A stretch of 64,000 nt of DNA, taken from NCBI GenBank assembly GCA_041389045.1, contig JAWKSQ010000002.1:23898-87897 (forward strand). Reading direction: 5' to 3'. Under the pieces are notes generated by a model. It worked only from the letters and a program-made list of their open reading frames with translations, had not been told where the DNA came from and did no database searches. This document shows positions 7,832 to 47,739 of this stretch, piece by piece; within the stretch, counting starts at the first letter, position 1, and each line of letters opens with the position of its first letter. This stretch comes from Minisyncoccota bacterium (lineage in GTDB: Bacteria > Patescibacteriota > Minisyncoccia > Phycocordibacterales > UBA918). The position numbers were made by a program, and so were the translations under genes.

Positions 7832-8737
7832 CTATTGCTGACTAGTCGAGGAAGCTACGTCAATATCTTCAACCATATCCGTACTAGTAGCTTGTTCATT
7901 TTCTACTACCTTAGGTTCAGAAATAGGTTCTTCATTAACAAAAACTTTGGTCCCAAACCGTAAATCAATATATTGAAAATTACCAGGCGCAAGGTGTTTA
8001 AACTCATCTGAATCTAAAAGTGTCTTCAGATATTTAAAAGTTTGCAGTGGTTCATCAGCCAAAGTTGCTTTCACTTCCCCGCCATCAGCTAAGGTATAAA
8101 AAACGTCACGAGCTGAATCAATTTCTACTTCACTCACATACCAATCCGAATCACTCAATAACTTTATAAAATCCCGGGTAGAAGTGTAATCAGTAGTTTC
8201 AAACGGACTGACGCCACGCTTGAGATCAGTGTCGAGTGCATAATATCTAAGCAAGCGATGACCAGACAACTTAGGAGCCGTCCCGAAAGCATACCCGTTT
8301 TCATCCAAGAATAAACAAGGTCCCTTTTCTGACTTGTCACACCACAGGGCATCGGGAAAATATTCATCAAAAGTAACCTGCATGGTCTGGTTACTCACCA
8401 TTTCGACTTGGACATTTTTTAGTCGTTCTAGTTCATACAGAGACTCAAGGATGTCTTCTTTTGGGTAAGTGAAAGAGAATCTCTTCGGTACTATACCTAA
8501 GTAAGTACCAGATAATTTATCGTTGATTTTACTATGGACAATTTCAGCACTAATGGTTTTACCACCCGAAACATTAATAGCACTAATGGTAAAGGTCTCA
8601 AGCCTAGTACCGTACCAAATACCAGTTAAAATCAAACCGACCACACAAAACAACAAAAAACCCATAATGAACTGTTTGACCAAAAGCACAGTCGCTGGGT
8701 TTACTTGTTTAAATCTTCGGTTGGGCCGGACTTTCAT
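7832..8737 (-). CDS. ftsQ: cell division protein FtsQ/DivIB-like
   Basis: N-terminal TM segment followed by a POTRA-like segment (ISAINVSGGKTISAEIV). The C-terminal tail is acidic. Confidence 0.55.
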   Translation of the reverse strand: MKVRPNRRFKQVNPATVLLVKQFIMGFLLFCVVGLILTGIWYGTRLETFTISAINVSGGKTISAEIVHSKINDKLSGTYLGIVPKRFSFTYPKEDILESLYELERLKNVQVEMVSNQTMQVTFDEYFPDALWCDKSEKGPCLFLDENGYAFGTAPKLSGHRLLRYYALDTDLKRGVSPFETTDYTSTRDFIKLLSDSDWYVSEVEIDSARDVFYTLADGGEVKATLADEPLQTFKYLKTLLDSDEFKHLAPGNFQYIDLRFGTKVFVNEEPISEPKVVENEQATSTDMVEDIDVASSTSQQ

Positions 8738-8775
8738 TTGTGAGTAATGTTACCACGCATTACCCACCAGAGAAA

Positions 8776-10041
8776 TTAACCAATCACCTCCTTACCCATA
8801 AATGGTCTAAGGGCTTCTGGTACTACAATCGTGCCGTCGGCTTGTTGGAAGTTTTCAATCAGTGATACCAAGATACGTGGCGTCGGAATAGCAGTACAGT
8901 TGAGTGAGTGAGCGTAACGCATCTTTCCTTCCGCATCGCGATAGCGAATATTGAAACGCCTAGCTTGGAAGTCGTGGAAGTATGAAGCAGAACTAATCTC
9001 ACGATAAGTCTGTTCACCTGGAACCCAAAGTTCGATGTCGTACTTCTTTACCTGTCCCTGACCAAGGTCACCACCACAATTAAGGACGGTTCGATACGGA
9101 ATACCGAGGGATTCAATAAACTCTTCCGTGTTACGGTTTATCCATTCGTGTTGCTTTACACTTTCTGCGTGTGAAGCTTCACAAAGTACTACTTGCTCCA
9201 GCTTGAAAAATTCATGCACCCGAATGAGACCCTTAGTGTCTTTACCGTGACTACCAGCTTCTCGACGGTAACAAGGAGAGAACGCCAAAAATTTAATTGG
9301 GAAATCTTTAGCGTCAAGAACTTCATCACTGAAGTAACCCATCGTAGACACTTCACTGGTACCAATCAGATAGTCATCATCTTGAGTTCGATAAACATCG
9401 TCGGCATCATTTGGTAGATGCCCAGTTCCATAAAGATTACTCTTTCGTACGATTGAAGGAACGAGGAGTGGTTCAAAACCTTTATCTAAGAAAAATTTAT
9501 TAGCGTAGTTCCAGATCGCCCAAGAGAGCCTGGCCCCATCACCGCGTAGATAGTAGCCACGAAAGCCGTGTACCTTCACCCCGCGTTCAAAGTCTGCCAA
9601 CTTATGTTTGGTCATAAGTTCGACATGGTCTTTGGCTTCAAAATCAAACTTAGTCTGGTCACCCCAGAGTTTGATTTCTAAGTTATCAGCATCACTCTTA
9701 CCGTCTGGTACCGACATATCAGGAATGTTTGGCACCTGAAGCATTATTTTTTGCCACTCTTCCATGACAGTCTTTAGACTTTCTTCTTCCCGTTGCATTT
9801 CAGTCTTTAGGGACTGCATTTCGATAATGAGCTTATCGCGCAAATTGGCGTCAGCGCCCGAGCGAGCGATTTCAGCTGACACACGGTTTTGTTCAGCTTT
9901 CTTAGTTTCAAGCGCAGTCATTTTGGCCCGTCTTTCGTCGTCCACCACCAAAAGCCTATCTATATCAACTAAAATCTTTTTCTTCTCCGCTGCTGACTTT
10001 ACAATATCGGCGTTTTCTCGAATAAATTTAATATCTAACAT
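8776..10041 (-). CDS. serS: seryl-tRNA synthetase
   Basis: MLDIKFIREN start, a coiled-coil arm, and class II motifs (FRGYYL, CYRREAGS, GGDLG). Confidence 0.95.
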   Translation of the reverse strand: MLDIKFIRENADIVKSAAEKKKILVDIDRLLVVDDERRAKMTALETKKAEQNRVSAEIARSGADANLRDKLIIEMQSLKTEMQREEESLKTVMEEWQKIMLQVPNIPDMSVPDGKSDADNLEIKLWGDQTKFDFEAKDHVELMTKHKLADFERGVKVHGFRGYYLRGDGARLSWAIWNYANKFFLDKGFEPLLVPSIVRKSNLYGTGHLPNDADDVYRTQDDDYLIGTSEVSTMGYFSDEVLDAKDFPIKFLAFSPCYRREAGSHGKDTKGLIRVHEFFKLEQVVLCEASHAESVKQHEWINRNTEEFIESLGIPYRTVLNCGGDLGQGQVKKYDIELWVPGEQTYREISSASYFHDFQARRFNIRYRDAEGKMRYAHSLNCTAIPTPRILVSLIENFQQADGTIVVPEALRPFMGKEVIG

Positions 10042-16932: not shown

Positions 16933-17013
16933 GCTGGAGTGGTGGAATGGTATACACGTGCGACTCAAAATCGCATGCCGCAAGGCTTGAGGGTTCAAGT
17001 CCCTCCTCCAGCA
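16933..17013 (+). tRNA. tRNA-Leu(CAA)
   Basis: GCTGGAG...TGCGA CTCAAAA TCGCA, a long variable arm, GAGGG TTCAAGT CCCTC, CTCCAGC A. No CCA is encoded. Confidence 0.9.
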
Positions 17014-17042
17014 CTTTGAACGAGAACATATCCAATAATATT

Positions 17043-17945
17043 GTGAAAGAAACAAAGCCTAAAATCGTCGCCATCGTAGGGGCAACTGCTTCCGGTAAGA
17101 CTTCCCTTTCTATCGACCTGGCGAAGGAGTTTTCTGGTGAGATTATCTCCGCTGATTCTAGGCAGGTCTATAAAGAACTAGACATTGGCACAGCTAAAGT
17201 AACTCAAGAAGAAATGTCGGGCGTACCACATCACCTTATAGATGTAGTTAATGTAGACACTGTCTTCACTGCTCATGATTTCAAAACCCTAGCCAACCAA
17301 GCTATAACTGACATTCAATCTCGAAACAAACTACCGATCATAGTTGGTGGCACCTTCTTTTACCTTGACCAACTCCGTGGTACGTCGGGTGTCGCAGACG
17401 TAGAACCAAATCCAGAACTACGAGCAGAGCTAGAACAACTATCTCTAGAAGAACTACGAACCAGAGTCGCCACTTTCGACCGTACCCTACTCGAAACTTT
17501 GGAAATTGAAAACCCGCGCCGACTCATGCGAGCTATTGAGATACTTGAAGCCCTTGGTCACATCCCAAAACCCACAGTAGTGGAAAGTCCCTATGATTGG
17601 CTGATAATTGGATTAAGTGTAGAAAAAGAAGAGTTACGATCCCGCTACCGTACACGAGCCACTTCCTGGCTTGAGGTCGGTTTTTTGGACGAAATATCGA
17701 CACTTTTAAAGAAAGGCGTTAGTGAAGCCAGGTTACAAGAAATTGGTTTTGAATATACGTTAGGTCTTAGTCTTCTCAAAGGTGAAATTACTGAAACTGA
17801 ATTTATCGACAAGTTTGAACAAAAAAACTGGCAATACGCCAAACGACAACTACTTTGGCTTAAACGCGACAGTGACATAAAATGGTTCAAACCAGAACAA
17901 AGAACTGACATATTCACTACCGTAGAATCATTTTTACACAATTGA
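17043..17945 (+). CDS. miaA: tRNA dimethylallyltransferase
   Basis: P-loop GATASGKTS, DSRQVYKELDIGTAK. The upstream part of the ORF overlaps the tRNA, so the start is taken at the in-frame GTG 17043. Confidence 0.85.
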   Translation: MKETKPKIVAIVGATASGKTSLSIDLAKEFSGEIISADSRQVYKELDIGTAKVTQEEMSGVPHHLIDVVNVDTVFTAHDFKTLANQAITDIQSRNKLPIIVGGTFFYLDQLRGTSGVADVEPNPELRAELEQLSLEELRTRVATFDRTLLETLEIENPRRLMRAIEILEALGHIPKPTVVESPYDWLIIGLSVEKEELRSRYRTRATSWLEVGFLDEISTLLKKGVSEARLQEIGFEYTLGLSLLKGEITETEFIDKFEQKNWQYAKRQLLWLKRDSDIKWFKPEQRTDIFTTVESFLHN

Positions 17946-18011: not shown

Positions 18012-18081
18012 GGGCCTATAGTTCAGTGGTAGAATCCGGTTTCCAAAACCGTTGACCGGGGTTCGAATCCTCGTGGGCCCG
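18012..18081 (+). tRNA. tRNA-Trp(CCA)
   Basis: GGGCCTA TA GTTC AGTGGTA GAAT CCGGT TTCCAAA ACCGT TGAC CGGGG TTCGAAT CCTCG TGGGCCC G. It is 70 nt (position 26 missing, variable loop of 4 nt). No CCA is encoded. Confidence 0.8.
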
Positions 18082-18130
18082 CTCGAGTAAAACGAAAACA
18101 CTTTGACACTGTCAAAGTGTTTTCGTGTTA

Positions 18131-18262
18131 GAAAGCAAATAGTTTTGCTTTCGTGCTCGAGCGGGAGACGGAGACATGTCGCTTTTCGACAGTCGAGTCG
18201 GGGTCGAGAACACTTAGTAGATTTAGAGCGAAGCGAATAAATATACTTAGTGATTCGTGACC
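18131..18262 (+). repeat. tRNA-linked mosaic structured repeat, unit A
   Basis: Conserved hairpin GAAAGCAAATAGTTTTGCTTTC, then CTCGAGCGGG (18156-18165), which is the reverse complement of the tRNA-Trp end CCCGCTCGAG (18077-18086). The core is GGGGTCGAGAACACTTAGTAGATTTAGAGCGAAGCGAATAAATATACTTAGTGATTCGTGACC. Confidence 0.8.
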
Positions 18263-18425
18263 GCAAAAAAGTGGACACAATGTATCCCGTTCCTGTAAGG
18301 AAAGAATCCTCGTGACCGCAAGAAAGTGGCCACAAGGTGTACTGGTCGTGTAACGACCGAAATTCTTCGTTAGTACTTAGTAGAATTAGAGCGAAGCGAA
18401 GAATTATACTTAGTAATTTGTGACC
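18263..18425 (+). repeat. mosaic repeat, unit B (beta segment plus second core)
   Basis: GTTCCTGTAAGGAAAGAATCCTCGTGACCGC, followed by GTACTTAGTAGAATTAGAGCGAAGCGAAGAATTATACTTAGTAATTTGTGACC. Confidence 0.75.
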
Positions 18426-18452
18426 ACAAAAGAAACTACACCAGATACCGGA

Positions 18453-19310
18453 CTACCTCATATCCGCATGAACATGCTTAGCCTCAATGAGTACGTAGTG
18501 GAAGCCAGCATCCCTAGCTAACTGTGCTACTTGAGCCAGTGTTATACCATTAATAGGTTGAAAATCGATCGCGGTGCCTTTGTAATGTTGACTATTTGCA
18601 CTGTGTCCCACTCCTTCGGTATAAGCAGCGGTAACTTGGAACGGTTGCTTACCATATTTCTTCAAACCTTCTTCCTGCATTTTCTTGGCCGCAGCTGCAG
18701 CGTCGACGTTTGCCTTATCTGTCCTACCTGGTCCATTGGTACCATGCCATGAGGCAACATTAAGTCCCATAGCACTTAGACTTGTCATACCGGAAGGATC
18801 GACAGGTGCACTGGGCACACCTGGCACCGGGACTACTGGCTCAGCTTTTTCATTTTTTAAATCTTCTGGTAAAATAGTCACTGTCTGTACCATACACTTC
18901 ACCTCTGACCAGGGACCCCAACCAGAAATCTCACCTACCGGCTGACCGGTATCACCACCTCCGACTAAACCTCTCATGATCGTGTCGACGATGAGCCAAG
19001 CTGACATCATGATTAAAAGACCAATCATGGCATTAGTAAACTTTGACTTAGCGGCTTGCAAAGCAGAAGTATTACCACCGGAAGTAACCAAACCAAAGCC
19101 AGCCACCACCATCAAAACAGCAAAAATCATAAAGACGATACCAAACAACCACACTATCACTTCATTCACCAGACTAGCTAAGCTACAAGCACTACAATCT
19201 GTACCGCTACAAGTCACAAAACGACTCTGCGCCATAGTAAGTGTCGGTAACAACCAAATACCTAAAAACAATGTTAGCGGGACCACCAAATGAAACATAT
19301 TTAGTATCAT
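18453..19310 (-). CDS. fusion protein: TrbC/VirB2-like (CPR T4SS-pilin-like) membrane domain plus M15-type peptidoglycan peptidase domain
   Basis: The N-terminus has a signal/TM segment, a Cys cluster (CSGTDCSACS), two TM helices and LIVDTIM, like the neighbouring 129-aa paralog. The C-terminus has GHSANSQHYKGTAIDF...HVHADM, which fits the SxHxxGxAxD...H zinc D,D-peptidase signature as I recall it. Confidence 0.65.
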   Translation of the reverse strand: MILNMFHLVVPLTLFLGIWLLPTLTMAQSRFVTCSGTDCSACSLASLVNEVIVWLFGIVFMIFAVLMVVAGFGLVTSGGNTSALQAAKSKFTNAMIGLLIMMSAWLIVDTIMRGLVGGGDTGQPVGEISGWGPWSEVKCMVQTVTILPEDLKNEKAEPVVPVPGVPSAPVDPSGMTSLSAMGLNVASWHGTNGPGRTDKANVDAAAAAKKMQEEGLKKYGKQPFQVTAAYTEGVGHSANSQHYKGTAIDFQPINGITLAQVAQLARDAGFHYVLIEAKHVHADMR

Positions 19311-19377
19311 AAAATTTATTATTACTTATATTTAAACACAGAAATGTCAAAAGGTGACCTGACTTTAAGCACAGTTA

Positions 19378-19767
19378 TTATGAGCACATTAAAGCATTCC
19401 AAACGCCATATTCAGAACCAGGAATAATTAACTTAAGAAAAGTATCAACAATCATCCAAGAAGCCAGTAAAATCATATACCCCACAATAGCGGTAGAAAT
19501 TATTTTTCTAGCCCCAGTCTTGGCTGACACATTACCGACTGCAGTACCCATCCATAGTCCAGCCACCACAATAGTCAAAACCACAAAAACACCTGACACC
19601 AGCACAAACCAATCAAAACCATTTTTTATTAGTTGTCCAAACTCGCAAAAACCACATTCATTAACCATTTTTCCGTCTACCACCTTTGGGTCACAAGGTA
19701 CAATCCCGGCCGCCAAACTAAGGGCTGGAAAAACCAATAAGACAAAGAAAAAAATTACTTTTGCCAT
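19378..19767 (-). CDS. TrbC/VirB2-like pilin-like small membrane protein
   Basis: Signal peptide, a CxxC-containing loop (CGFCEF), two TM helices and WMIVDTFLKL. Confidence 0.65.
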   Translation of the reverse strand: MAKVIFFFVLLVFPALSLAAGIVPCDPKVVDGKMVNECGFCEFGQLIKNGFDWFVLVSGVFVVLTIVVAGLWMGTAVGNVSAKTGARKIISTAIVGYMILLASWMIVDTFLKLIIPGSEYGVWNALMCS

Positions 19768-20057: not shown

Positions 20058-20140
20058 GCGTCGGTACTCAAGCGGTCAACGAGGGCAGACTGTAAATCTG
20101 CTGGCATCAGCCTACGAAGGTTCGAATCCCTCCCGGCGCA
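20058..20140 (+). tRNA. tRNA-Tyr(GTA)
   Basis: GCGTCGG...GCAGA CTGTAAA TCTGC, a long variable arm, GGTTCGAATCC, CCGGCGC A. No CCA is encoded. Confidence 0.9.
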
Positions 20141-20172
20141 CATTAGAAGATAAGGCACCTTTAGGTGCTTTT

Positions 20173-20334
20173 TCTAATGTGCGCCGGAGCAAGCAAATAG
20201 TTTTGCTTGCTTGAGGGATTCAAAAGCGCAGCGATGCCGAAGGCGAGCGAGCTGGGGTCGAGAGTACTTAGTAGAATTAGAGCGTAGCGAATAATTATAC
20301 TTAGTAACTCGTGACCGAATCCTTTCCTCCCGGC
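20173..20334 (+). repeat. tRNA-linked mosaic structured repeat, unit C (archetype)
   Basis: TGCGCCGG (20180-87) and GAGGGATTC (20213-21) are the reverse complement of the tRNA-Tyr 3' strands. They are split by AGCAAGCAAATAGTTTTGCTTGCT. The core ends in CTCGTGACC (20316). GAATCCTTTCCTCCCGGC (20317-34) follows. Confidence 0.85.
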
Positions 20335-21167: not shown

Positions 21168-21557
21168 CTAGAAAGTGGCAAAGATCTTTCTGTTGCCTGA
21201 ATCAATTCGAACCATACCACCATACGGCATTGGGATCTGCGGTTCTGTGTGACCAAAATCCATATTCTGAACAATAGGTATTTCTTTGTTGTAGGCACGA
21301 ACAATTTTTACAATTGTATCTTGCTGTTCCTTTCTGTACGCAACTCGTTCTTCAAGACTTCGCATGTTATCAAATTCACGTGCTTTAGCTCGTCCTACGC
21401 AAATACCCTTTACTCGCGAAAGTACACCTCGTTCCCCTAATGCACGGAAGAATCTCATAACATAATCAGAAGATGGTATCTCTTCTGAAGTTTCCATCAT
21501 AAGTACGATATCTTCAAATTGCTCTAGAGACGGGCTATCAACTCCGTGTCGCAACAT
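21168..21557 (-). CDS. LD-carboxypeptidase (S66/MccF-like), C-terminal fragment
   Basis: Contains MDFGHTEPQIPMPYGG. It continues from 21640-22203 after a 1-nt frameshift near 21643-21650. Confidence 0.75.
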   Translation of the reverse strand: MLRHGVDSPSLEQFEDIVLMMETSEEIPSSDYVMRFFRALGERGVLSRVKGICVGRAKAREFDNMRSLEERVAYRKEQQDTIVKIVRAYNKEIPIVQNMDFGHTEPQIPMPYGGMVRIDSGNRKIFATF

Positions 21558-21639: not shown

Positions 21640-22203
21640 TCATACTCTCTCCTTATTCAGCTGTTCAACATCACCCCAATCTAATCCAATATCATTAAAA
21701 GACTTACTTGACATAAGTTCAAACTCTCCCTCATCAAACAAAGCGTGTCTGATGTACTCTACTGTATATGGATTCATTTCTTTCTGATGTGCAAACTGGG
21801 TGAATAGCGCGGCTCCGTAGAATGACGGTATTCCATTTAAAAACAGAAAGTTACAAAAATGTGAGTTATCACTGTATCCAAAAAATGGTTTTGTATTATC
21901 TACAAACGGTTTACTGAGAAGATTTTTGATATACGTTACTTGTATATCACCGCCAAGAGTTGATATAACTGCTTTAATTTCTGGATCAGAAAATGCAGCA
22001 ATGATATCATTAGCTTTTTCCTCAAGAGTAGCGTCGAGTATAGCTGTAGTTGGATACATTACAGGTTCAAGTTCAAATACTTCACGAAGGCGCTTAAGTC
22101 CCAAATCATGAACGTGTGGCCACACAGCTGACGCGGCAAAACTCGGTGACACAATTGCAACCTTATCCCCTTTCTTTAATTTGGGTATTTTTTTCATTTT
22201 CAT
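21640..22203 (-). CDS. LD-carboxypeptidase (S66/MccF-like), N-terminal fragment
   Basis: Contains KGDKVAIVSPS and the GYSDNSH nucleophile motif. The linking segment YEPNEGWSWDGSKSAEGLLWGGCLESIDEMLRHG is readable in another frame. Confidence 0.75.
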   Translation of the reverse strand: MKMKKIPKLKKGDKVAIVSPSFAASAVWPHVHDLGLKRLREVFELEPVMYPTTAILDATLEEKANDIIAAFSDPEIKAVISTLGGDIQVTYIKNLLSKPFVDNTKPFFGYSDNSHFCNFLFLNGIPSFYGAALFTQFAHQKEMNPYTVEYIRHALFDEGEFELMSSKSFNDIGLDWGDVEQLNKERV

Positions 22204-37395: not shown

Positions 37396-37468
37396 GCGCC
37401 TTTAGCTCAGTTGGTAGAGCAGCTCCCTCTTGGAGACGGTCCAAGGTTCGAGCCTTGAAGGCGCACCA
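37396..37468 (+). tRNA. tRNA-like gene (Lys-CTT-like) with encoded CCA and non-canonical anticodon and T loops
   Basis: GCGCCTT TA GCTC AGTTGGTA GAGC A GCTCC CTCTT GGAGA CGGTC CAAGG TTCGAG CCTTG AAGGCGC A CCA. It has a 5-nt anticodon loop and a 6-nt T loop. Function is doubtful, or indel errors are present. Confidence 0.4.
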
Positions 37469-41649: not shown

Positions 41650-42096
41650 TTAAGGTGTGCCTGGATTAGGACCTCCTACAGGTGGAGTACCACCGGGATT
41701 AGGACCTCCTACAGGTGGAGTGCCACCGGGATTAGGACCTCCTACAGGTGGAGTGCCACCGGGATTAGGTAATCTGAATACTTCGTTACAGCCGGACGCC
41801 GATGGATTTTGAGCGCAGTCTAGCTCTTGATTAAGACCAAAAGTTCCCGCTGCGATACTTAAAATAGCAAAAGCTGAGGCCATTACGACCAAACCAATAA
41901 TACCAAAGGTGATATGTTTCTTCCCTTCTGCGCGAGCAGATTCATTATCAGCATTCATGATGTAGAGCGCACAACCATAAATAAAAACTAAAAAAGCAAT
42001 ACCCGAGAGCAGTGAGATGGTAGGAAAAAGAATCGCCGTGTTTAGTCTATCAACTAGTTTTCCAGCCTCAATCGTAGCGGATTCTTGTGGTGACAT
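41650..42096 (-). CDS. TrbC/VirB2-like pilin-like membrane protein with C-terminal PGGTPPVGGPN repeats
   Basis: Two TM helices flank NADNESARAEGKK. The tail has three 30-bp tandem repeats (41668-41765) encoding NPGGTPPVGG. Confidence 0.65.
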   Translation of the reverse strand: MSPQESATIEAGKLVDRLNTAILFPTISLLSGIAFLVFIYGCALYIMNADNESARAEGKKHITFGIIGLVVMASAFAILSIAAGTFGLNQELDCAQNPSASGCNEVFRLPNPGGTPPVGGPNPGGTPPVGGPNPGGTPPVGGPNPGTP

Positions 42097-42191: not shown

Positions 42192-42584
42192 CTAAGGTGT
42201 AATCTTAACTTGCGGTAAAGTACCTTCAATTGAAGGGTCCTTTAATCCAGTTGTGTTTACAAGGAAGTTTACTACTCCCCAGAAAACAATGATAATGACG
42301 AACGCTAGAGTAGCGTAGATCATCAAACTCTTTCCCTTTTCCTTGGCCTCATCGTTAGATCCACCGACAATGAAGAATTGGAACATTCCCCAAACGAATA
42401 CTAGGAAACCAATACCAATAATAAATGGGATGAGAACACTATTAGTAAAAATAAGGATGTTCTTTAGCAAGTCTCCAAAAGGACCACCAGAACCATTATC
42501 TGCTAGACCACCCTGCGCAAACACCATCGCTACTGGCAGAGCATATAGGGCTGTAGAACCAATAAGAAATTTTAAACGTCGCAT
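42192..42584 (-). CDS. TrbC/VirB2-like pilin-like membrane protein
   Basis: Signal peptide and two TM helices flanking GGSNDEAKEKGK. Confidence 0.6.
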   Translation of the reverse strand: MRRLKFLIGSTALYALPVAMVFAQGGLADNGSGGPFGDLLKNILIFTNSVLIPFIIGIGFLVFVWGMFQFFIVGGSNDEAKEKGKSLMIYATLAFVIIIVFWGVVNFLVNTTGLKDPSIEGTLPQVKITP

Positions 42585-42688
42585 ACGACAAATCAATTAA
42601 TATTATTAATAACTTAACTACCAACTATAATTATACACCAAAATCATGGATTTCGAGTATTTTCAATCACAACTGTGCATAAAGAAAA

Positions 42689-42943
42689 TTAGCCAAAGAT
42701 GGAGTTTTTTATCAAAGCTACAATCCCCCAAATCACCACTACCACCACCATGACAATAACACCAGTTATAGCGTACTGCCTTCCCTCCTCCTGCTTTTTT
42801 TCATCATCTGCATGAACCACCCAGGCGTCAAAAATCTTAAAAGCTAACACGACAAAAACCACACCGATGATGACAGGCACGAGCAAGTTGATCAAATTAA
42901 GTAGGCTGTTAACTAATTCAGTATAAGTAGTGGGGGTAGACAT
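42689..42943 (-). CDS. TrbC/VirB2-like pilin-like small membrane protein
   Basis: 84 aa with two TM helices flanking HADDEKKQEEGRQ. Confidence 0.6.
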   Translation of the reverse strand: MSTPTTYTELVNSLLNLINLLVPVIIGVVFVVLAFKIFDAWVVHADDEKKQEEGRQYAITGVIVMVVVVVIWGIVALIKNSIFG

Positions 42944-42948
42944 AGAAA

Positions 42949-43344
42949 TTAAAAATTAGTCACTAAGTTTTTCACAATCGTAGCAATGGCTACCGCCCCA
43001 AGAATGATCACACCACCAATCACGGCGTAAGTCAGGGCCGTAGTAGCTTGCTTGACTTGTTCGGCGTTGCCACGAGCAGTGACATAAAGGAACCCAGAAT
43101 AAATAATGAAGAAAACAATAATCGGTACTGCCAGTACCATAACAATGGCTAAAATAGCTTCCAGTAGACCTTCAATACTATCGATCTTTAATGGGTTTTT
43201 AATCGGAATTGACGTACTTCTGTCATTAGGCACAGTCTGTGCCAGTGCAGACATAGTAAATAAATTTTCCACCAAAAAACAGCCCCCTAAGTAAAGATAA
43301 AGTCGACTTGATACCAACCAGTTAAAAATTTGTCGTTTTTTCAT
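42949..43344 (-). CDS. TrbC/VirB2-like pilin-like membrane protein
   Basis: Signal peptide and two TM helices flanking ARGNAEQVKQATT. Confidence 0.6.
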   Translation of the reverse strand: MKKRQIFNWLVSSRLYLYLGGCFLVENLFTMSALAQTVPNDRSTSIPIKNPLKIDSIEGLLEAILAIVMVLAVPIIVFFIIYSGFLYVTARGNAEQVKQATTALTYAVIGGVIILGAVAIATIVKNLVTNF

Positions 43345-45276: not shown

Positions 45277-47739
45277 CTAGACGAACACTACACTAGCGAT
45301 AGCATCCCCTTCACGCATTTTCATGACCCGTACCCCTTGAGTCTGACGTCCAAGAGTTGGCACATCTTTAAGTGGAAGTTTAATCACCTGTCCTTTCTTA
45401 CTCATGATGACTAACTCCCTTCAGTACGCTCATCCTCCTTGAGGACAATACCGCAAACAATCGTACCAGTCTTACTAGTCACCTTAGCTGTCTTAATACC
45501 TGAACCGCCACGCTTTTGGACTTTATATTCTTTGGTTGGAGTGGTTTTACCGTAACCGTGCTGTGTCACTATCAAGATTTCATTATTCTTATCACCTTTA
45601 GTAATAACGTCAGCCGAAACCACCACATCATTCTTACCTAGACGTACCGCCGCTACTCCGCCGGCTGTACGACCCATTTGTCTAACATCGCTTTCTTTAA
45701 AGCGAATCGCTTGACCATTTAGCGTCACCAGTGACACCTCATCGCCTTTGCCAACAAAACGAGCCGAAATGAGTGAATCCTCTGGCTTAAGCGTGATAGC
45801 AATAAGCCCACTGCGCCTAACATCCTTAAAGGCTTCAGCGTCACATTTCTTAGCTACACCATTTTTGGTAATCATCATCAGGCTCCAGTCGCCGGCGTTA
45901 GCGTCTTTTCGTACTGCCAACACTGAAGTAATACTTTCCTCACTAGTGAGTGACAAAAAGTTCATGATTGATTTACCTTTGGTGGCACGACGGCCCTCAG
46001 GGATTTCAAACATCTTGCTCTGGTAGACCTTGCCCCGATTAGTGAAGAAGAGTAAGTCACTATGAGTAGATGTCGTTAGTAGAGTGGTGACTACGTCTTC
46101 TTCTTTGGTATTGAGGTCAATAACGCCAACCCCACCGCGTTTTTGTGTACGGTATTCACTTGGATTAGTTCGTTTGACGTATCCACCTTGAGTCAACACT
46201 AAAACACTCTCTTCATCTGGTACCAGGTCTTCCTGTGAAAGTTGCTTTACGCCACCCTTGACTATCTTGGTGCGACGATCGTCACCATACTTCTCAGCTA
46301 CTTCTAGCAGGTCGTCCTTAACGATCTTCATCATCTTCGCTTTACTCTTGAGAATGGCTTCTAGTTCACCAATGAGTTTCTTTAGTTCAGCCAGTTCGTC
46401 CTCAATCTTCTTGCGCTCTAGTCCAGCCAACTTCTGCAGACGCATATCCAAAATCGCCTGCGCTTGTAAAGCTGAGAATTTAAATTCTTTCATCAAAGAT
46501 GCGTGTGCGGTCGGCACGTCTTTCGCGGCCCGAATAAGCTTGATTATCTTATCGATATGATCGAGCGCCTTCTTGAGACCAAGCAAAATATGCTCACGGT
46601 CTTTAGCTTTACCGAGATCATACTCCGTGCGACGACGGATCACTTCCGCTCGGTGCTTAACGTATTCTTGCAGGATTACCTTAAGCGAAAGAGTTTGTGG
46701 TACACCATCTACCAAAGCCACCATGTTGTAGTGGAAAGTATCTTCAAGTGGTGTGTGCTTGTACAATTTATTTAAAACTGTCTGTGGTTGTGCACCAGCC
46801 TTCAGCTCGATAACAATCCGAATATCAGAAGTCGACTCGTCGCGCATGTCGCGGATACCCTCAATCTTCTTGTCACGAACTAAGTCAGCGATTTTTACTT
46901 GTAGCTCAGCCTTATTAACCCGATATGGAATCGAAGTAATAATAATGGCAAAGGCCCCTTTCTTATCTTCAACAATCTCGGCTTCCCCGCGCACTACTAC
47001 ACCACCTTTACCATTAGCATAGGCATGAGCAATGTCTTTTTGATTGAAAGCAATGGCACCAGTTGGAAAATCTGGACCCTTAACGAATTTTAGTAGATCA
47101 TCGGTTGAAGCATCAGGATTATCGACCAAGTGAGCTGTCGTTCAATTTCACCGCAAGTTGTGTGGAGGAATATTGGTGGCCATTCCTACCGCAATACCAA
47201 GTGAACCCATCATTAGTAAGTTGGGTACTGCTGAAGGAAGAACTACTGGTTCTTTTTGGTACCATCGAAGTTTGGTCGCCAGTCGACGTGTCTTTCTCTA
47301 AATCACGAAGCATTTCTTCGGCCAACTTCCGACATTTTTGCTTCAGTGTATCGATAAGCGCTGAGTCACCGTCAATCGAACAAAGTTTCCTTGCCCAAGT
47401 ACCAGCGGATAACGAGTTGAGAAGTCTTGCGCCAACTTAACCATCGCTTCGTAGACCGAAAGTCACCGTGCGGGTGCAAGCTACCAAGCACGTCTCCCAC
47501 TACCGTCGCTGACTTTTTTGAACTTAGCAGTTGAAGTTGATCATTTAACCTCATCGAATAGAAATACGACGATGTACTGGCTTCAAACCATCACGCACGT
47601 CAGGTAGCGCGCGAGCAGTAATAACCGACATAGCGTAATTTAGATACGCTGTCTCCATTTCATTGGTTATATCCTGAGCCACAACCCCACGATGTGGTGG
47701 CATTTCTGGTGTATCAGCAACAATTGTCTTTTTCGGCAT
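45277..47739 (-). pseudogene. gyrA: DNA gyrase subunit A, full span, interrupted by about 9 or more single-nt indels
   Basis: GyrA sequence is readable across frames: MPKKT...[99 protein letters not shown], then the intact 572-aa ORF. The last blade (VIMSKKGQVIKLPLKDVPTLGRQTQGVRVMKM) follows a GGG-run frameshift at 45417-19. Confidence 0.85.
45411..47129 (-). CDS. gyrA: DNA gyrase subunit A, largest intact ORF (C-terminal two-thirds)
   Basis: 572-aa ORF covering the tower/coiled-coil region and beta-pinwheel blades. Confidence 0.9.
   Translation of the reverse strand: MVDNPDASTDDLLKFVKGPDFPTGAIAFNQKDIAHAYANGKGGVVVRGEAEIVEDKKGAFAIIITSIPYRVNKAELQVKIADLVRDKKIEGIRDMRDESTSDIRIVIELKAGAQPQTVLNKLYKHTPLEDTFHYNMVALVDGVPQTLSLKVILQEYVKHRAEVIRRRTEYDLGKAKDREHILLGLKKALDHIDKIIKLIRAAKDVPTAHASLMKEFKFSALQAQAILDMRLQKLAGLERKKIEDELAELKKLIGELEAILKSKAKMMKIVKDDLLEVAEKYGDDRRTKIVKGGVKQLSQEDLVPDEESVLVLTQGGYVKRTNPSEYRTQKRGGVGVIDLNTKEEDVVTTLLTTSTHSDLLFFTNRGKVYQSKMFEIPEGRRATKGKSIMNFLSLTSEESITSVLAVRKDANAGDWSLMMITKNGVAKKCDAEAFKDVRRSGLIAITLKPEDSLISARFVGKGDEVSLVTLNGQAIRFKESDVRQMGRTAGGVAAVRLGKNDVVVSADVITKGDKNNEILIVTQHGYGKTTPTKEYKVQKRGGSGIKTAKVTSKTGTIVCGIVLKEDERTEGS

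Follow-up and report, generated by a model that had tools for sequence, protein, structure and literature searches.

Two adjacent genes transcribed leftwards within a conserved chromosomal slot are described here, from a 64-kb window (64,000 nucleotides, the whole stretch of DNA analysed) of contig JAWKSQ010000002.1 of a Minisyncoccota bacterium. Gene A (18453..19310, minus strand) is an open reading frame (ORF) encoding a 285-residue fusion protein with matches to T4SS_pilin (PF18895), Peptidase_M15_3 (PF08291) and HH_signal (PF01085), all above the Pfam cut-offs. Gene B (19378..19767, minus strand), immediately upstream, encodes a headless pilin-like partner of 129 residues that is orthologous to pilin::SLT or lysozyme-like fusions of relatives. 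Gene A represents a single allele at a polymorphic locus, where a constant stalk carries exchanged heads, and every head that can be annotated among the relatives surveyed is a peptidoglycan hydrolase; no nuclease or lipase heads were seen among them. A protein identical to the gene A product is encoded on a 237-kb contig of a 'Candidatus Paceibacterota' metagenome-assembled genome (MAG), where NCBI has automatically named it 'D-Ala-D-Ala carboxypeptidase family metallohydrolase'. In all, 328 database proteins match gene A, and the homolog comparisons reported here cover the best 120 of these matches, with the full-length protein as the query.

The gene A product has four parts, all encoded on the minus strand. 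First, a hydrophobic window and an A-x-A-like site predict a Sec signal peptide (residues 1–27; 19230..19310), with cleavage inferred from sequence after TMA|QS. Secondly, a mature pilin-like N-module (residues 28–139; 18894..19229) is delimited by the Pfam match, the AlphaFold helices, invariant residues and a junction motif; it comprises a cysteine loop (C34/C39/C42), a helix (41–76), a basic loop with K88, a second helix (81–116) and a β-hairpin (126–139) in which the junction motif GWGPWSEVKC closes at C139. Thirdly, a flexible linker rich in proline and valine (residues 140–171; 18798..18893) is recognised from its proline content (19% over residues 140–175) and from AlphaFold confidence (pLDDT) values below 50, with residues 142–163 disordered. 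Finally, Pfam, an alignment with Sonic hedgehog (Shh), the zinc ligands, pLDDT and Foldseek predict a LAS-fold zinc peptidase head of the Hedgehog-N/M15A-like type (residues 172–285; 18456..18797). The AlphaFold model, with a mean pLDDT of 82 overall and 90–98 in the head, has the shape of a helical hairpin, a small β-hairpin, a disordered linker and a compact head; the first-pass annotation had described a pilin-like membrane domain continuing through a P/V-rich linker into a C-terminal domain. Export by the signal peptide, an N-out/C-out hairpin with a basic cytoplasmic loop, and an intact zinc peptidase on the outer side of the membrane are strongly predicted.

The linker differs in length and content between gene A homologs. 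We note that a subset of long homologs with heads of the window type (P0004–P0006, P0013, P0015 and P0122) carry an insert of about 60–70 residues between junction and head, with six conserved cysteines in the pattern C..GL.P..L...GC.F..C.T..C...C, which looks from its sequence like an extra small disulfide-rich domain. The proposal that the fusion results from a sequencing or assembly indel joining two neighbouring genes is almost certainly wrong and was rejected, as the frame reads through without a break, the junction motif is conserved, and the same architecture occurs in hundreds of homologs from independent assemblies and at 78 loci in a survey of species-representative genomes. The reverse of such an artefact occurs in one relative (L007, protein P0017), whose head is split by a frameshift.

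The N-modules of genes A and B belong to one family. Both exceed the PF18895 gathering cut-off of 26.6 bits (gene A with 33.9 bits over residues 44–111, gene B with 27.9 bits), they share 34% identity over 86 residues (E 5e-13), and the signal segment, the cysteine-rich loop, the two helices and the (A/S)W(L/M)IVDT(I/F) motif (AWLIVDTIM in gene A, SWMIVDTFL in gene B) are common to both, so that the stand-alone neighbour is a pilin-like paralog, as had been suspected. Gene B has C25, C38 and C41 in its loop and C128 past the second helix, the last being equivalent to C139 of gene A. The layout of TrbC/VirB2 proteins is present in gene A, with a signal peptide, two hydrophobic helices, a short basic loop and both termini predicted outside. 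The earlier label of a TrbC/VirB2-type domain stands as far as PF18895 is concerned, but the TrbC/VirB2 family itself (PF04956) matched neither gene at E ≤ 1, and TrbC matches, below threshold, were seen in relatives (precomputed PF04956 matches exist in four gene A homologs). The best Foldseek match of the N-module model is the Aeropyrum pernix conjugation pilus 8dfu (E 8.2, TM 0.52), a two-helix hairpin being too simple for the Foldseek statistics, and a profile search of PDB sequences with the N-module found no pilin. Kinship with VirB2 is thus suggested by Pfam alone.

Eight residues are invariant in an alignment of 115 proteins (the window protein and 114 homologs): C34, C39, C42, C139, G71, G79, K88 and G97. 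The loop SGGNTSALQAAKSKF joins helices 41–76 and 81–116 and holds K88. The four cysteines are strongly predicted to clamp the two external ends of the hairpin together into an external knob, through what may be either two disulfides or a Cys4 site. Identity of the N-module to that of the window ranges from 51 to 81% across relatives, and from 51 to 65% in related loci L001–L006, where its conservation equals that of ParB and exceeds that of MiaA; this implies constraint beyond what a plain membrane anchor would need.

The predicted peptidase head

The head matches Peptidase_M15_3 with 25.5 bits (cut-off 23.2) over residues 206–283, corresponding to profile positions 27–108 of 108, and HH_signal with 24.8 bits (cut-off 22.1) over profile positions 98–160 of 161 only; with database E-values of 1e-5 to 1e-8 these matches are not due to chance. 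Its two motifs are G235-HSANSQHYKGTAIDF-250 and H279-V-H281-ADM, giving the signature S240-x-H242-x-x-G245-x-A247-x-D249 ... H279-x-H281, with a spacing of H242-x6-D249. In a 37-sequence alignment of proteins with window-type or classical M15 heads, S240, H242, G245, A247, D249 and H281 are invariant, as is C139, and H279 is kept in 35 of the 37; E276 and H236 are kept in every window-type head. We predict from these patterns that H242, D249 and H281 are the zinc ligands, and that H279, E276 and H236 are candidate catalytic residues. The signature had been taken at the outset for that of an M15-like zinc D,D-/L,D-peptidase, and the above-threshold M15-type Pfam match and the invariant ligands bear this out.

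Of the solved structures, Sonic hedgehog gives the best match by sequence, aligned over gene A residues 223–284 only, such that H242/D249/H281 coincide with the Shh zinc ligands H141/D148/H183 and E276 with the catalytic E177 (Shh numbering from PMC6027127). Foldseek returned 38 matches in the PDB, all of them Hedgehog N-domains (E 3e-5 to 5e-3, 36 at E ≤ 0.001) and nothing else above noise; the best superpose with a root-mean-square deviation of about 2.6 Å over about 116 residues at 20–24% identity, with TM scores of 0.6–0.65 to Shh, Ihh and Dhh. Predicted models of phage M15A and MepK-like peptidases match more weakly (E 6e-4 to 1e-2), and the head profile also matches 1lbu, a Streptomyces zinc DD-carboxypeptidase (E 0.007). 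The head shares with Hedgehog-N and the M15A LAS peptidases (MepK and the phage M15A endolysins) the H-x6-D ... H-x-H site and equivalents of E177 and H135. Because Pfam, Foldseek and the zinc-site alignment agree, we place the head, as a prediction, among the zinc peptidases of LAS fold, in their Hedgehog/M15A branch, with its catalytic site intact.

Bacterial Hedgehog (bacHh) domains have been described by Roelink as C-terminal parts of larger, sometimes membrane-anchored proteins (PMC6027127), and we considered whether the window head is one of these. This was rejected: bacHh proteins are about 50% identical to ShhN, whereas the window head matches the catalytic half of Hedgehog-N only, at 20–24% identity, and we therefore file it as Hedgehog-like within the LAS peptidases. 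A true bacHh protein (P0143) scores 143 bits on PF01085 compared to 24.8 for the gene A head, and the true bacHh proteins are weak matches to the window head (E 1e-4 to 1e-10).

An exhaustive phmmer search of 1.84 billion representatives with residues 172–285, which replaced a word-indexed head search that had found three proteins owing to a prefilter limitation, yielded 38 proteins at E ≤ 1e-3, of which 24 reach E ≤ 1e-10, nearly all with the head at the extreme C-terminus of a protein of 270–520 residues. Window-type heads thus form a small separate clade that is rare and almost confined to pilin-like scaffolds, some of them on a more divergent hairpin whose PF18895 match is weak and mostly below the cut-off. 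Judged by predicted structure, this clade stands closest to the Hedgehog catalytic core among bacterial symbionts, and both it and the unannotated LAS-like heads described below are relevant to the discovery of enzymes and to the history of the Hedgehog and DD-peptidase fold. Two proteins (P0131 and P0137) are double-headed, with a VanY domain (110–134 bits) N-terminal to the hairpin and a Hh/M15_3-like head C-terminal to it, an order that places a wall peptidase on both external ends of the hairpin; their hairpins score 17–20 bits on PF18895, below the cut-off.

With Hedgehog signalling domains, i.e. ligands, as the closest solved structures, and with the HH_signal profile matched only over its C-terminal 60 positions, the head could be seen as a non-catalytic, wall-binding adhesin that attaches to host peptidoglycan or glycopolymer without cleavage. 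There is only a slight chance of this, as the zinc triad and the equivalents of the catalytic Glu and His are kept in every window-type head, and sister alleles carry the bona fide peptidases VanY, Peptidase_M15_4 and NLPC_P60. Drosophila Hh, in which peptidase function is lost, has also lost those residues (PMC6027127).

Head exchange in a tRNA-bounded slot

The order serS-dprA-topA-relA-parB-miaA-[cassette]...clpB is found in the window and in six related loci, with the fusion gene convergent to miaA (16947..17945, plus strand), which serves as a synteny anchor and is kept in the related loci. The cassette itself is bounded downstream by a tRNA-Trp gene (18012..18082, plus strand; same position in L001 and L003–L006) and upstream by a tRNA-Tyr gene (20058..20141, plus strand; same position in L001 and L003–L005), giving the order tRNA-Tyr / cassette / tRNA-Trp / miaA, and both tRNA genes bound the cassette in every related locus that extends far enough. 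Identities of the related loci to the window are 76–83% for TopA, 81–88% for ClpB, 64–83% for ParB and about 50% for MiaA.

The N-module is common to all 119 other homologs listed, with a median identity of 61% to residues 1–142. More than 100 of 109 proteins have a junction of the form [WYF]GPW[SA][EQ][VI]xCxxQ, and the DNA of the window and that of L004 are homologous only as far as the codon of C139. Past this junction the heads fall into several classes that are unrelated or related by motif only: the Hh-like head of the window, VanY-like heads, classical M15A and M15_3 heads, NlpC/P60- or CHAP-like heads, and LAS-II to LAS-V, the last being heads of the H..G...D / H type that are named from motifs and are not recognised by Pfam. 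The class of the head is incongruent with the relatedness of the N-modules among the matches listed, where the closest N-modules (75–81% identical; P0017, P0024, P0026 and P0058) bear other heads, and N-module identity falls to 66% in the best protein that shares the head of the window. This comparison is subject to selection, since a match with a foreign head could be listed only on the strength of its N-module, and its median identities are affected accordingly, although the individual examples stand. Window-type heads account for 27 of the top 120 matches, a number inflated by the full-length query, as a survey with the N-module finds them at one locus (L017).

The same pattern is evident among the related loci. 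Heads of the window class in L001 and L003 are 51–63% identical to that of gene A. In L004, L005 and L006, TopA is 79–83% identical and the N-modules 61–65%, and the heads have no detectable or only motif-level similarity: none in L004, a non-significant match of 12 residues in L006 (E 0.27), and motif-level similarity in L005 (E 0.002). ClpB of L004 and L005 is 88% identical to that of the window (no L006 clpB was compared). Exchange of heads by recombination at the conserved GPW..V.C junction is strongly predicted.

A scan of species-representative genomes found 112 relatives, from which we retained 78 loci. Apart from a few evidently mis-binned contigs, nearly every one of these carries the label Paceibacteria, Parcubacteria, Kaiserbacteria, Nomurabacteria or 'Patescibacteria'. 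These contain 103 pilin-like genes with tails of at least 90 residues, which were sorted by coverage-filtered clustering, and by Pfam searches on cluster representatives, into 14 tail clusters. The gene A slot holds at least 10 of these clusters, including VanY (54 bits), Peptidase_M15_4 (57 bits), NLPC_P60 (33 bits), M15_3/Hh-like and unannotated LAS-like heads, and the syntenic position is occupied by at least nine head clusters and also by headless forms. The downstream tRNA-Trp is present in 44 of the 62 loci that could be evaluated, miaA within 2.5 kb downstream in 47 of the 62, and the upstream tRNA-Tyr in 56 of the 78. Cassette contigs of L047, L052 and many 'Saccharibacteria'-labelled loci also appear in MAG records as Archaeoglobaceae, Bacilli or Saccharibacteria; these odd labels are probably due to mis-binning or loose naming and not to true spread.

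The position and neighbours bear on the proposal that the fusion is a housekeeping autolysin with a pilin-derived anchor, remodelling the producer's own wall in growth or division with no link to a type IV secretion system (T4SS). Such a role would suit the housekeeping neighbours (topA, relA, parB, miaA and clpB), the conserved chromosomal position and the lack of T4SS genes nearby. We nonetheless think it quite unlikely. The constraint on the N-module, with eight invariant residues including four cysteines and 51–81% identity, exceeds an anchor's need; a core growth enzyme would not usually undergo non-orthologous replacement of its head between close relatives; the slot is also found with headless variants; and the ordinary wall enzymes of the genome, an S11 DD-carboxypeptidase and an S66 LD-carboxypeptidase, carry no such scaffold.

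The organisation also resembles that of polymorphic toxins (CdiA, Rhs, LXG, MafB) in its constant N-terminal module, its variable C-terminal enzymes and its junction motif with a break in DNA homology at that point, and it might accordingly be a strict interbacterial toxin, a contact weapon on a T4SS pilus directed at competitors or kin, with immunity shielding siblings. A candidate immunity or inhibitor gene of about 140 codons, encoding a membrane-anchored protein of no Pfam family, does lie directly after CHAP/NlpC-like heads, and after no other head class, in two independent loci (L008 2845–3267 and L010 6949–7374; 34% identity, E 7e-22). However, no immunity-like gene is found beside the Zn-peptidase heads of the window, L001 or L003–L006, and the window has no ORF between the gene A stop and tRNA-Trp and no orphan head cassettes downstream, only repeats and the tRNA gene. 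Further, the constant part is a pilin-like hairpin and not a secreted filament, Rhs shell or XVIPCD signal, and the payloads that can be annotated are all wall hydrolases and not the typical nucleases, deaminases or pore-formers; we consider a strict toxin highly unlikely. Effectors of the bacteria-killing Xanthomonas T4SS reportedly include peptidoglycan hydrolases, as do the payloads here.

Three copies of a direct repeat of about 70 nt, against none expected by chance, are present in the window at the cassette flanks only, two between the gene A stop and tRNA-Trp (18194–18263 and 18357–18426) and one on the far side of tRNA-Tyr (20248–20317), all on the plus strand and with the consensus CGAG.CGGGGTCGAGAGTACTTAGTAGAATTAGAGCGAAGCGAA..TATACTTAGTAA.TCGTGACCGC. 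Each flanking tRNA gene is followed by a hairpin and then by the repeat, and copies occur at the equivalent place in L001–L004. An Rfam search with the repeat returned no family, and scans for promoters and terminators gave sites no more frequent than in shuffled sequence; the repeat might serve as a terminator or promoter, or as a site at which cassettes are exchanged by recombination. In L003 a reverse transcriptase gene (RVT_1, 318 residues) and an upstream helix-turn-helix gene lie directly upstream of the cassette on the tRNA-Tyr side (8227–9487), and might represent a retron or a diversity-generating retroelement. A LAGLIDADG endonuclease gene is situated between miaA and parB in L001 and L003.

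The partner gene and the probable target

Gene B is 33–38% identical to the upstream partners in L001, L004 and L005, of which that in L005 is a pilin::SLT fusion (PF01464) and that in L001 has an SLT_3-like head; an SLT fusion also adjoins the peptidase fusion in L003 and L010. Across the 78 loci the partner slot holds almost exclusively two glycan-cutter clusters, with 31 SLT_3-like members (26.4 bits, just under the cut-off of 27) and 11 SLT members (39 bits); the SLT heads of orthologous partner genes score 28–39 bits. Pfam finds no lytic transglycosylase or lysozyme-type domain in gene A or gene B. A homolog search with gene B gave four proteins, on contigs with A-type fusions bearing other heads; its closest homologs (63–86% identical) are likewise headless and lie directly upstream of A-type genes, whose heads are LAS-V (frameshifted), CHAP/NlpC-like and VanY-like. 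Because partner heads are SLT- or SLT_3-like and gene A heads are peptidases, the cassette appears from these sequences to be a pair of a glycan cutter, sometimes headless, and a peptide cutter, each on a pilin-like hairpin.

We read this pair as a pilin-scaffolded peptide cutter and glycan cutter for breaching peptidoglycan, probably with both a link to a T4SS and a host wall as its aim. The first-pass annotation had suggested that such a tether would suit an episymbiont having to get through a host wall, or wall remodelling local to a surface filament. The conserved pilin module would dock the enzyme at or into the T4SS or pilus apparatus of the Paceibacteria cell, or may polymerise with it instead of just docking; the tethered head would cut stem peptides or cross-links of peptidoglycan, and this cutting would open a hole at the contact site. 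As to which wall is attacked, we tentatively favor that of an attached host or neighboring cell, the cassette being a breaching tool matched to host range, because the glycan-cutter slot is conservative and the peptide-cutter slot hypervariable among genomes about 80% identical in TopA. All bacterial walls have the same glycan backbone, and their peptide chemistry varies from one bacterium or host to another.

A somewhat less likely alternative, and a serious one, is that the cassette works in the manner of VirB1 on the wall of the producer itself, the hairpin bringing hydrolases to the site of T4SS or pilus assembly to open a passage, in which case head swaps would be near-neutral since any wall hydrolase makes the hole. 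Having one cutter for glycan and one for peptide, the cassette mirrors the two-domain SLT and CHAP hydrolases of Gram-positive T4SSs (PMC12102498), the partner heads are indeed SLT or SLT_3-like, the enzyme is membrane-tethered and faces the own wall, and no immunity gene accompanies the Zn-peptidase heads. On the other hand, the cassette is outside a T4SS cluster in every locus examined, the partner is headless in the window genome and several others, and a purely self-directed role does not predict frequent replacement of the peptidase head beside a conservative glycosidase slot.

Several observations weigh against a host-directed, T4SS-linked breaching tool. VirB4, VirB6 and VirD4 were not found in the 64-kb window or within 10 kb in L001–L006; the window scan covered all ORFs of at least 400 residues and most of those of 270–370 residues, which are all housekeeping or without a Pfam family, and any tie to a T4SS is therefore indirect. 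T4SS pili have yet to be observed in these organisms, comparison of the hairpin with solved conjugative pilins gave nothing significant by either fold or profile, and many of the heads are LAS-like by motif alone, without recognition by Pfam. To these is added the lack of an immunity-like gene beside the Zn-peptidase heads. As the enzyme is tethered to the producer's membrane and faces the producer's wall, a self-directed role is no less simple as an explanation.

The comparison with known systems is informative in both directions. Two-domain SLT + CHAP enzymes of the VirB1 type are exemplified by TraG of pIP501 and PrgK of pCF10 (PMC12102498). Like these, the pilin::SLT and pilin::peptidase fusions of the relatives combine a glycan and a peptide cutter that are membrane-tethered and extracytoplasmic; unlike them, the activities are divided between two proteins, each on a pilin-like hairpin rather than a simple transmembrane segment, with a Zn LAS peptidase rather than CHAP in most alleles, and the locus is polymorphic and outside a T4SS cluster. 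The cassette would thus act like a VirB1-type hydrolase and appears organised like a polymorphic effector, and belongs strictly to neither class because of its location away from a T4SS cluster, the absence of SLT from gene A and the absence of an immunity gene. Modular type IV pilins with grafted C-terminal modules, which are adhesive and displayed on the filament, are reportedly found in Streptococcus sanguinis (PilB and PilC); these belong to an unrelated pilin superfamily with class III signal peptides, in contrast to the VirB2-like hairpins here.

In the Patescibacteria, VirB2-like pilins and T4SSs are widespread and are essential for epibiotic growth in a Saccharibacterium, the single species in which this was tested, and the T4SSs mostly have no recognisable VirB1 wall hydrolase (PMC12102498, PMC10633639). 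The T4SS cluster of Southlakia epibionticum holds an essential array of PF18895 pilins, and a peptidase and a lysozyme homologue adjoining virB4 are both essential (PMC10633639, PMC12102498). Genes A and B resemble such pilins in Pfam family, signal peptide, two helices and basic loop, and differ from them in having a four-cysteine external knob, in the 146-residue enzyme extension of gene A, in not lying beside virB4, and in the 51–81% identity of A-type N-modules compared to an average of about 25% reported within pilin arrays. Pilin-enzyme fusions are not mentioned in PMC10633639 or PMC12102498, and a survey of PF18895 in 3,035 Patescibacteria genomes likewise mentions neither pilin-hydrolase fusions nor the slot or its head polymorphism. 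The parts are already known, namely Patescibacteria VirB2-like pilins, M15/LAS and NlpC/P60 peptidases, and SLT. The first-pass annotation was aware of no characterisation of this architecture, which holds in that we found no paper on pilin-hydrolase fusions, the conserved slot or head polymorphism, but the domains had already been annotated automatically, by NCBI and by JGI, the latter listing the pair as 'Type IV secretion system pilin/Peptidase M15'.

Little is known about the way in which Patescibacteria (the Candidate Phyla Radiation, CPR) fasten to hosts, get through their walls and feed on them. For the wall-breaching step, which lacks an identified enzyme, the locus provides concrete candidates in the form of predicted wall hydrolases that are continuous with the pilin-like scaffold. 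The conserved tRNA-bounded slot is a simple comparative handle, with a stable glycan-cutter gene and a repeatedly replaced peptidase head, and if head class tracks the wall chemistry of hosts, then host range could be inferred from metagenomes. We speculate further, as an unlikely but consequential extension of host-wall breaching, that Paceibacteria build T4SS pili or pilus tips from modular VirB2-like pilins with interchangeable peptidoglycan-cutting 'warheads', one pilin bearing a conserved glycan cutter and the other a peptidase that recombination swaps to suit the stem peptides of the current host; if true, the head allele at the tRNA-Tyr/tRNA-Trp slot would be a genomic read-out of the host range of uncultured episymbionts.

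Pilin array and other features of the window

PF18895 pilins tend to occur in arrays, and the window contains one of four short genes (41650–42096, 42192–42596, 42689–42943 and 42949–43344, all minus strand) scoring 31–37 bits. These genes lack the cysteine clamp and lie downstream of a solute-binding protein gene; the one at 42949–43344 also matches TrbC with 25.0 bits, below the cut-off of 27.9. From their sequences they are candidates for the 'ordinary' pilins of the same genome. Adjoining the array, the segment 39676–41565 (plus strand) has a GC content of 0.51 compared to about 0.43, and contains ORFs of 296 and 326 residues without a Pfam family, the longer of which includes several hydrophobic segments; the segment may be of foreign origin, or its ORFs may be T4SS components that escaped recognition.

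Three other features of the window are noted. The LD-carboxypeptidase gene (Peptidase_S66) appears to be split over 21168–21557 and 21640–22203 (minus strand), with the N-terminal domain in the latter, and could reflect a frameshift, a pseudogene or a sequencing error. A gyrA-like ORF (45411–47129, minus strand) matches the DNA_topoisoIV profile from position 167 onwards and thus lacks about 165 N-terminal residues; the gene may be split, interrupted or mis-started. Finally, ARAGORN reports a 'tRNA-???' with a two-base anticodon at 37396–37468 (plus strand), which matches the Rfam tRNA family with 53 bits.

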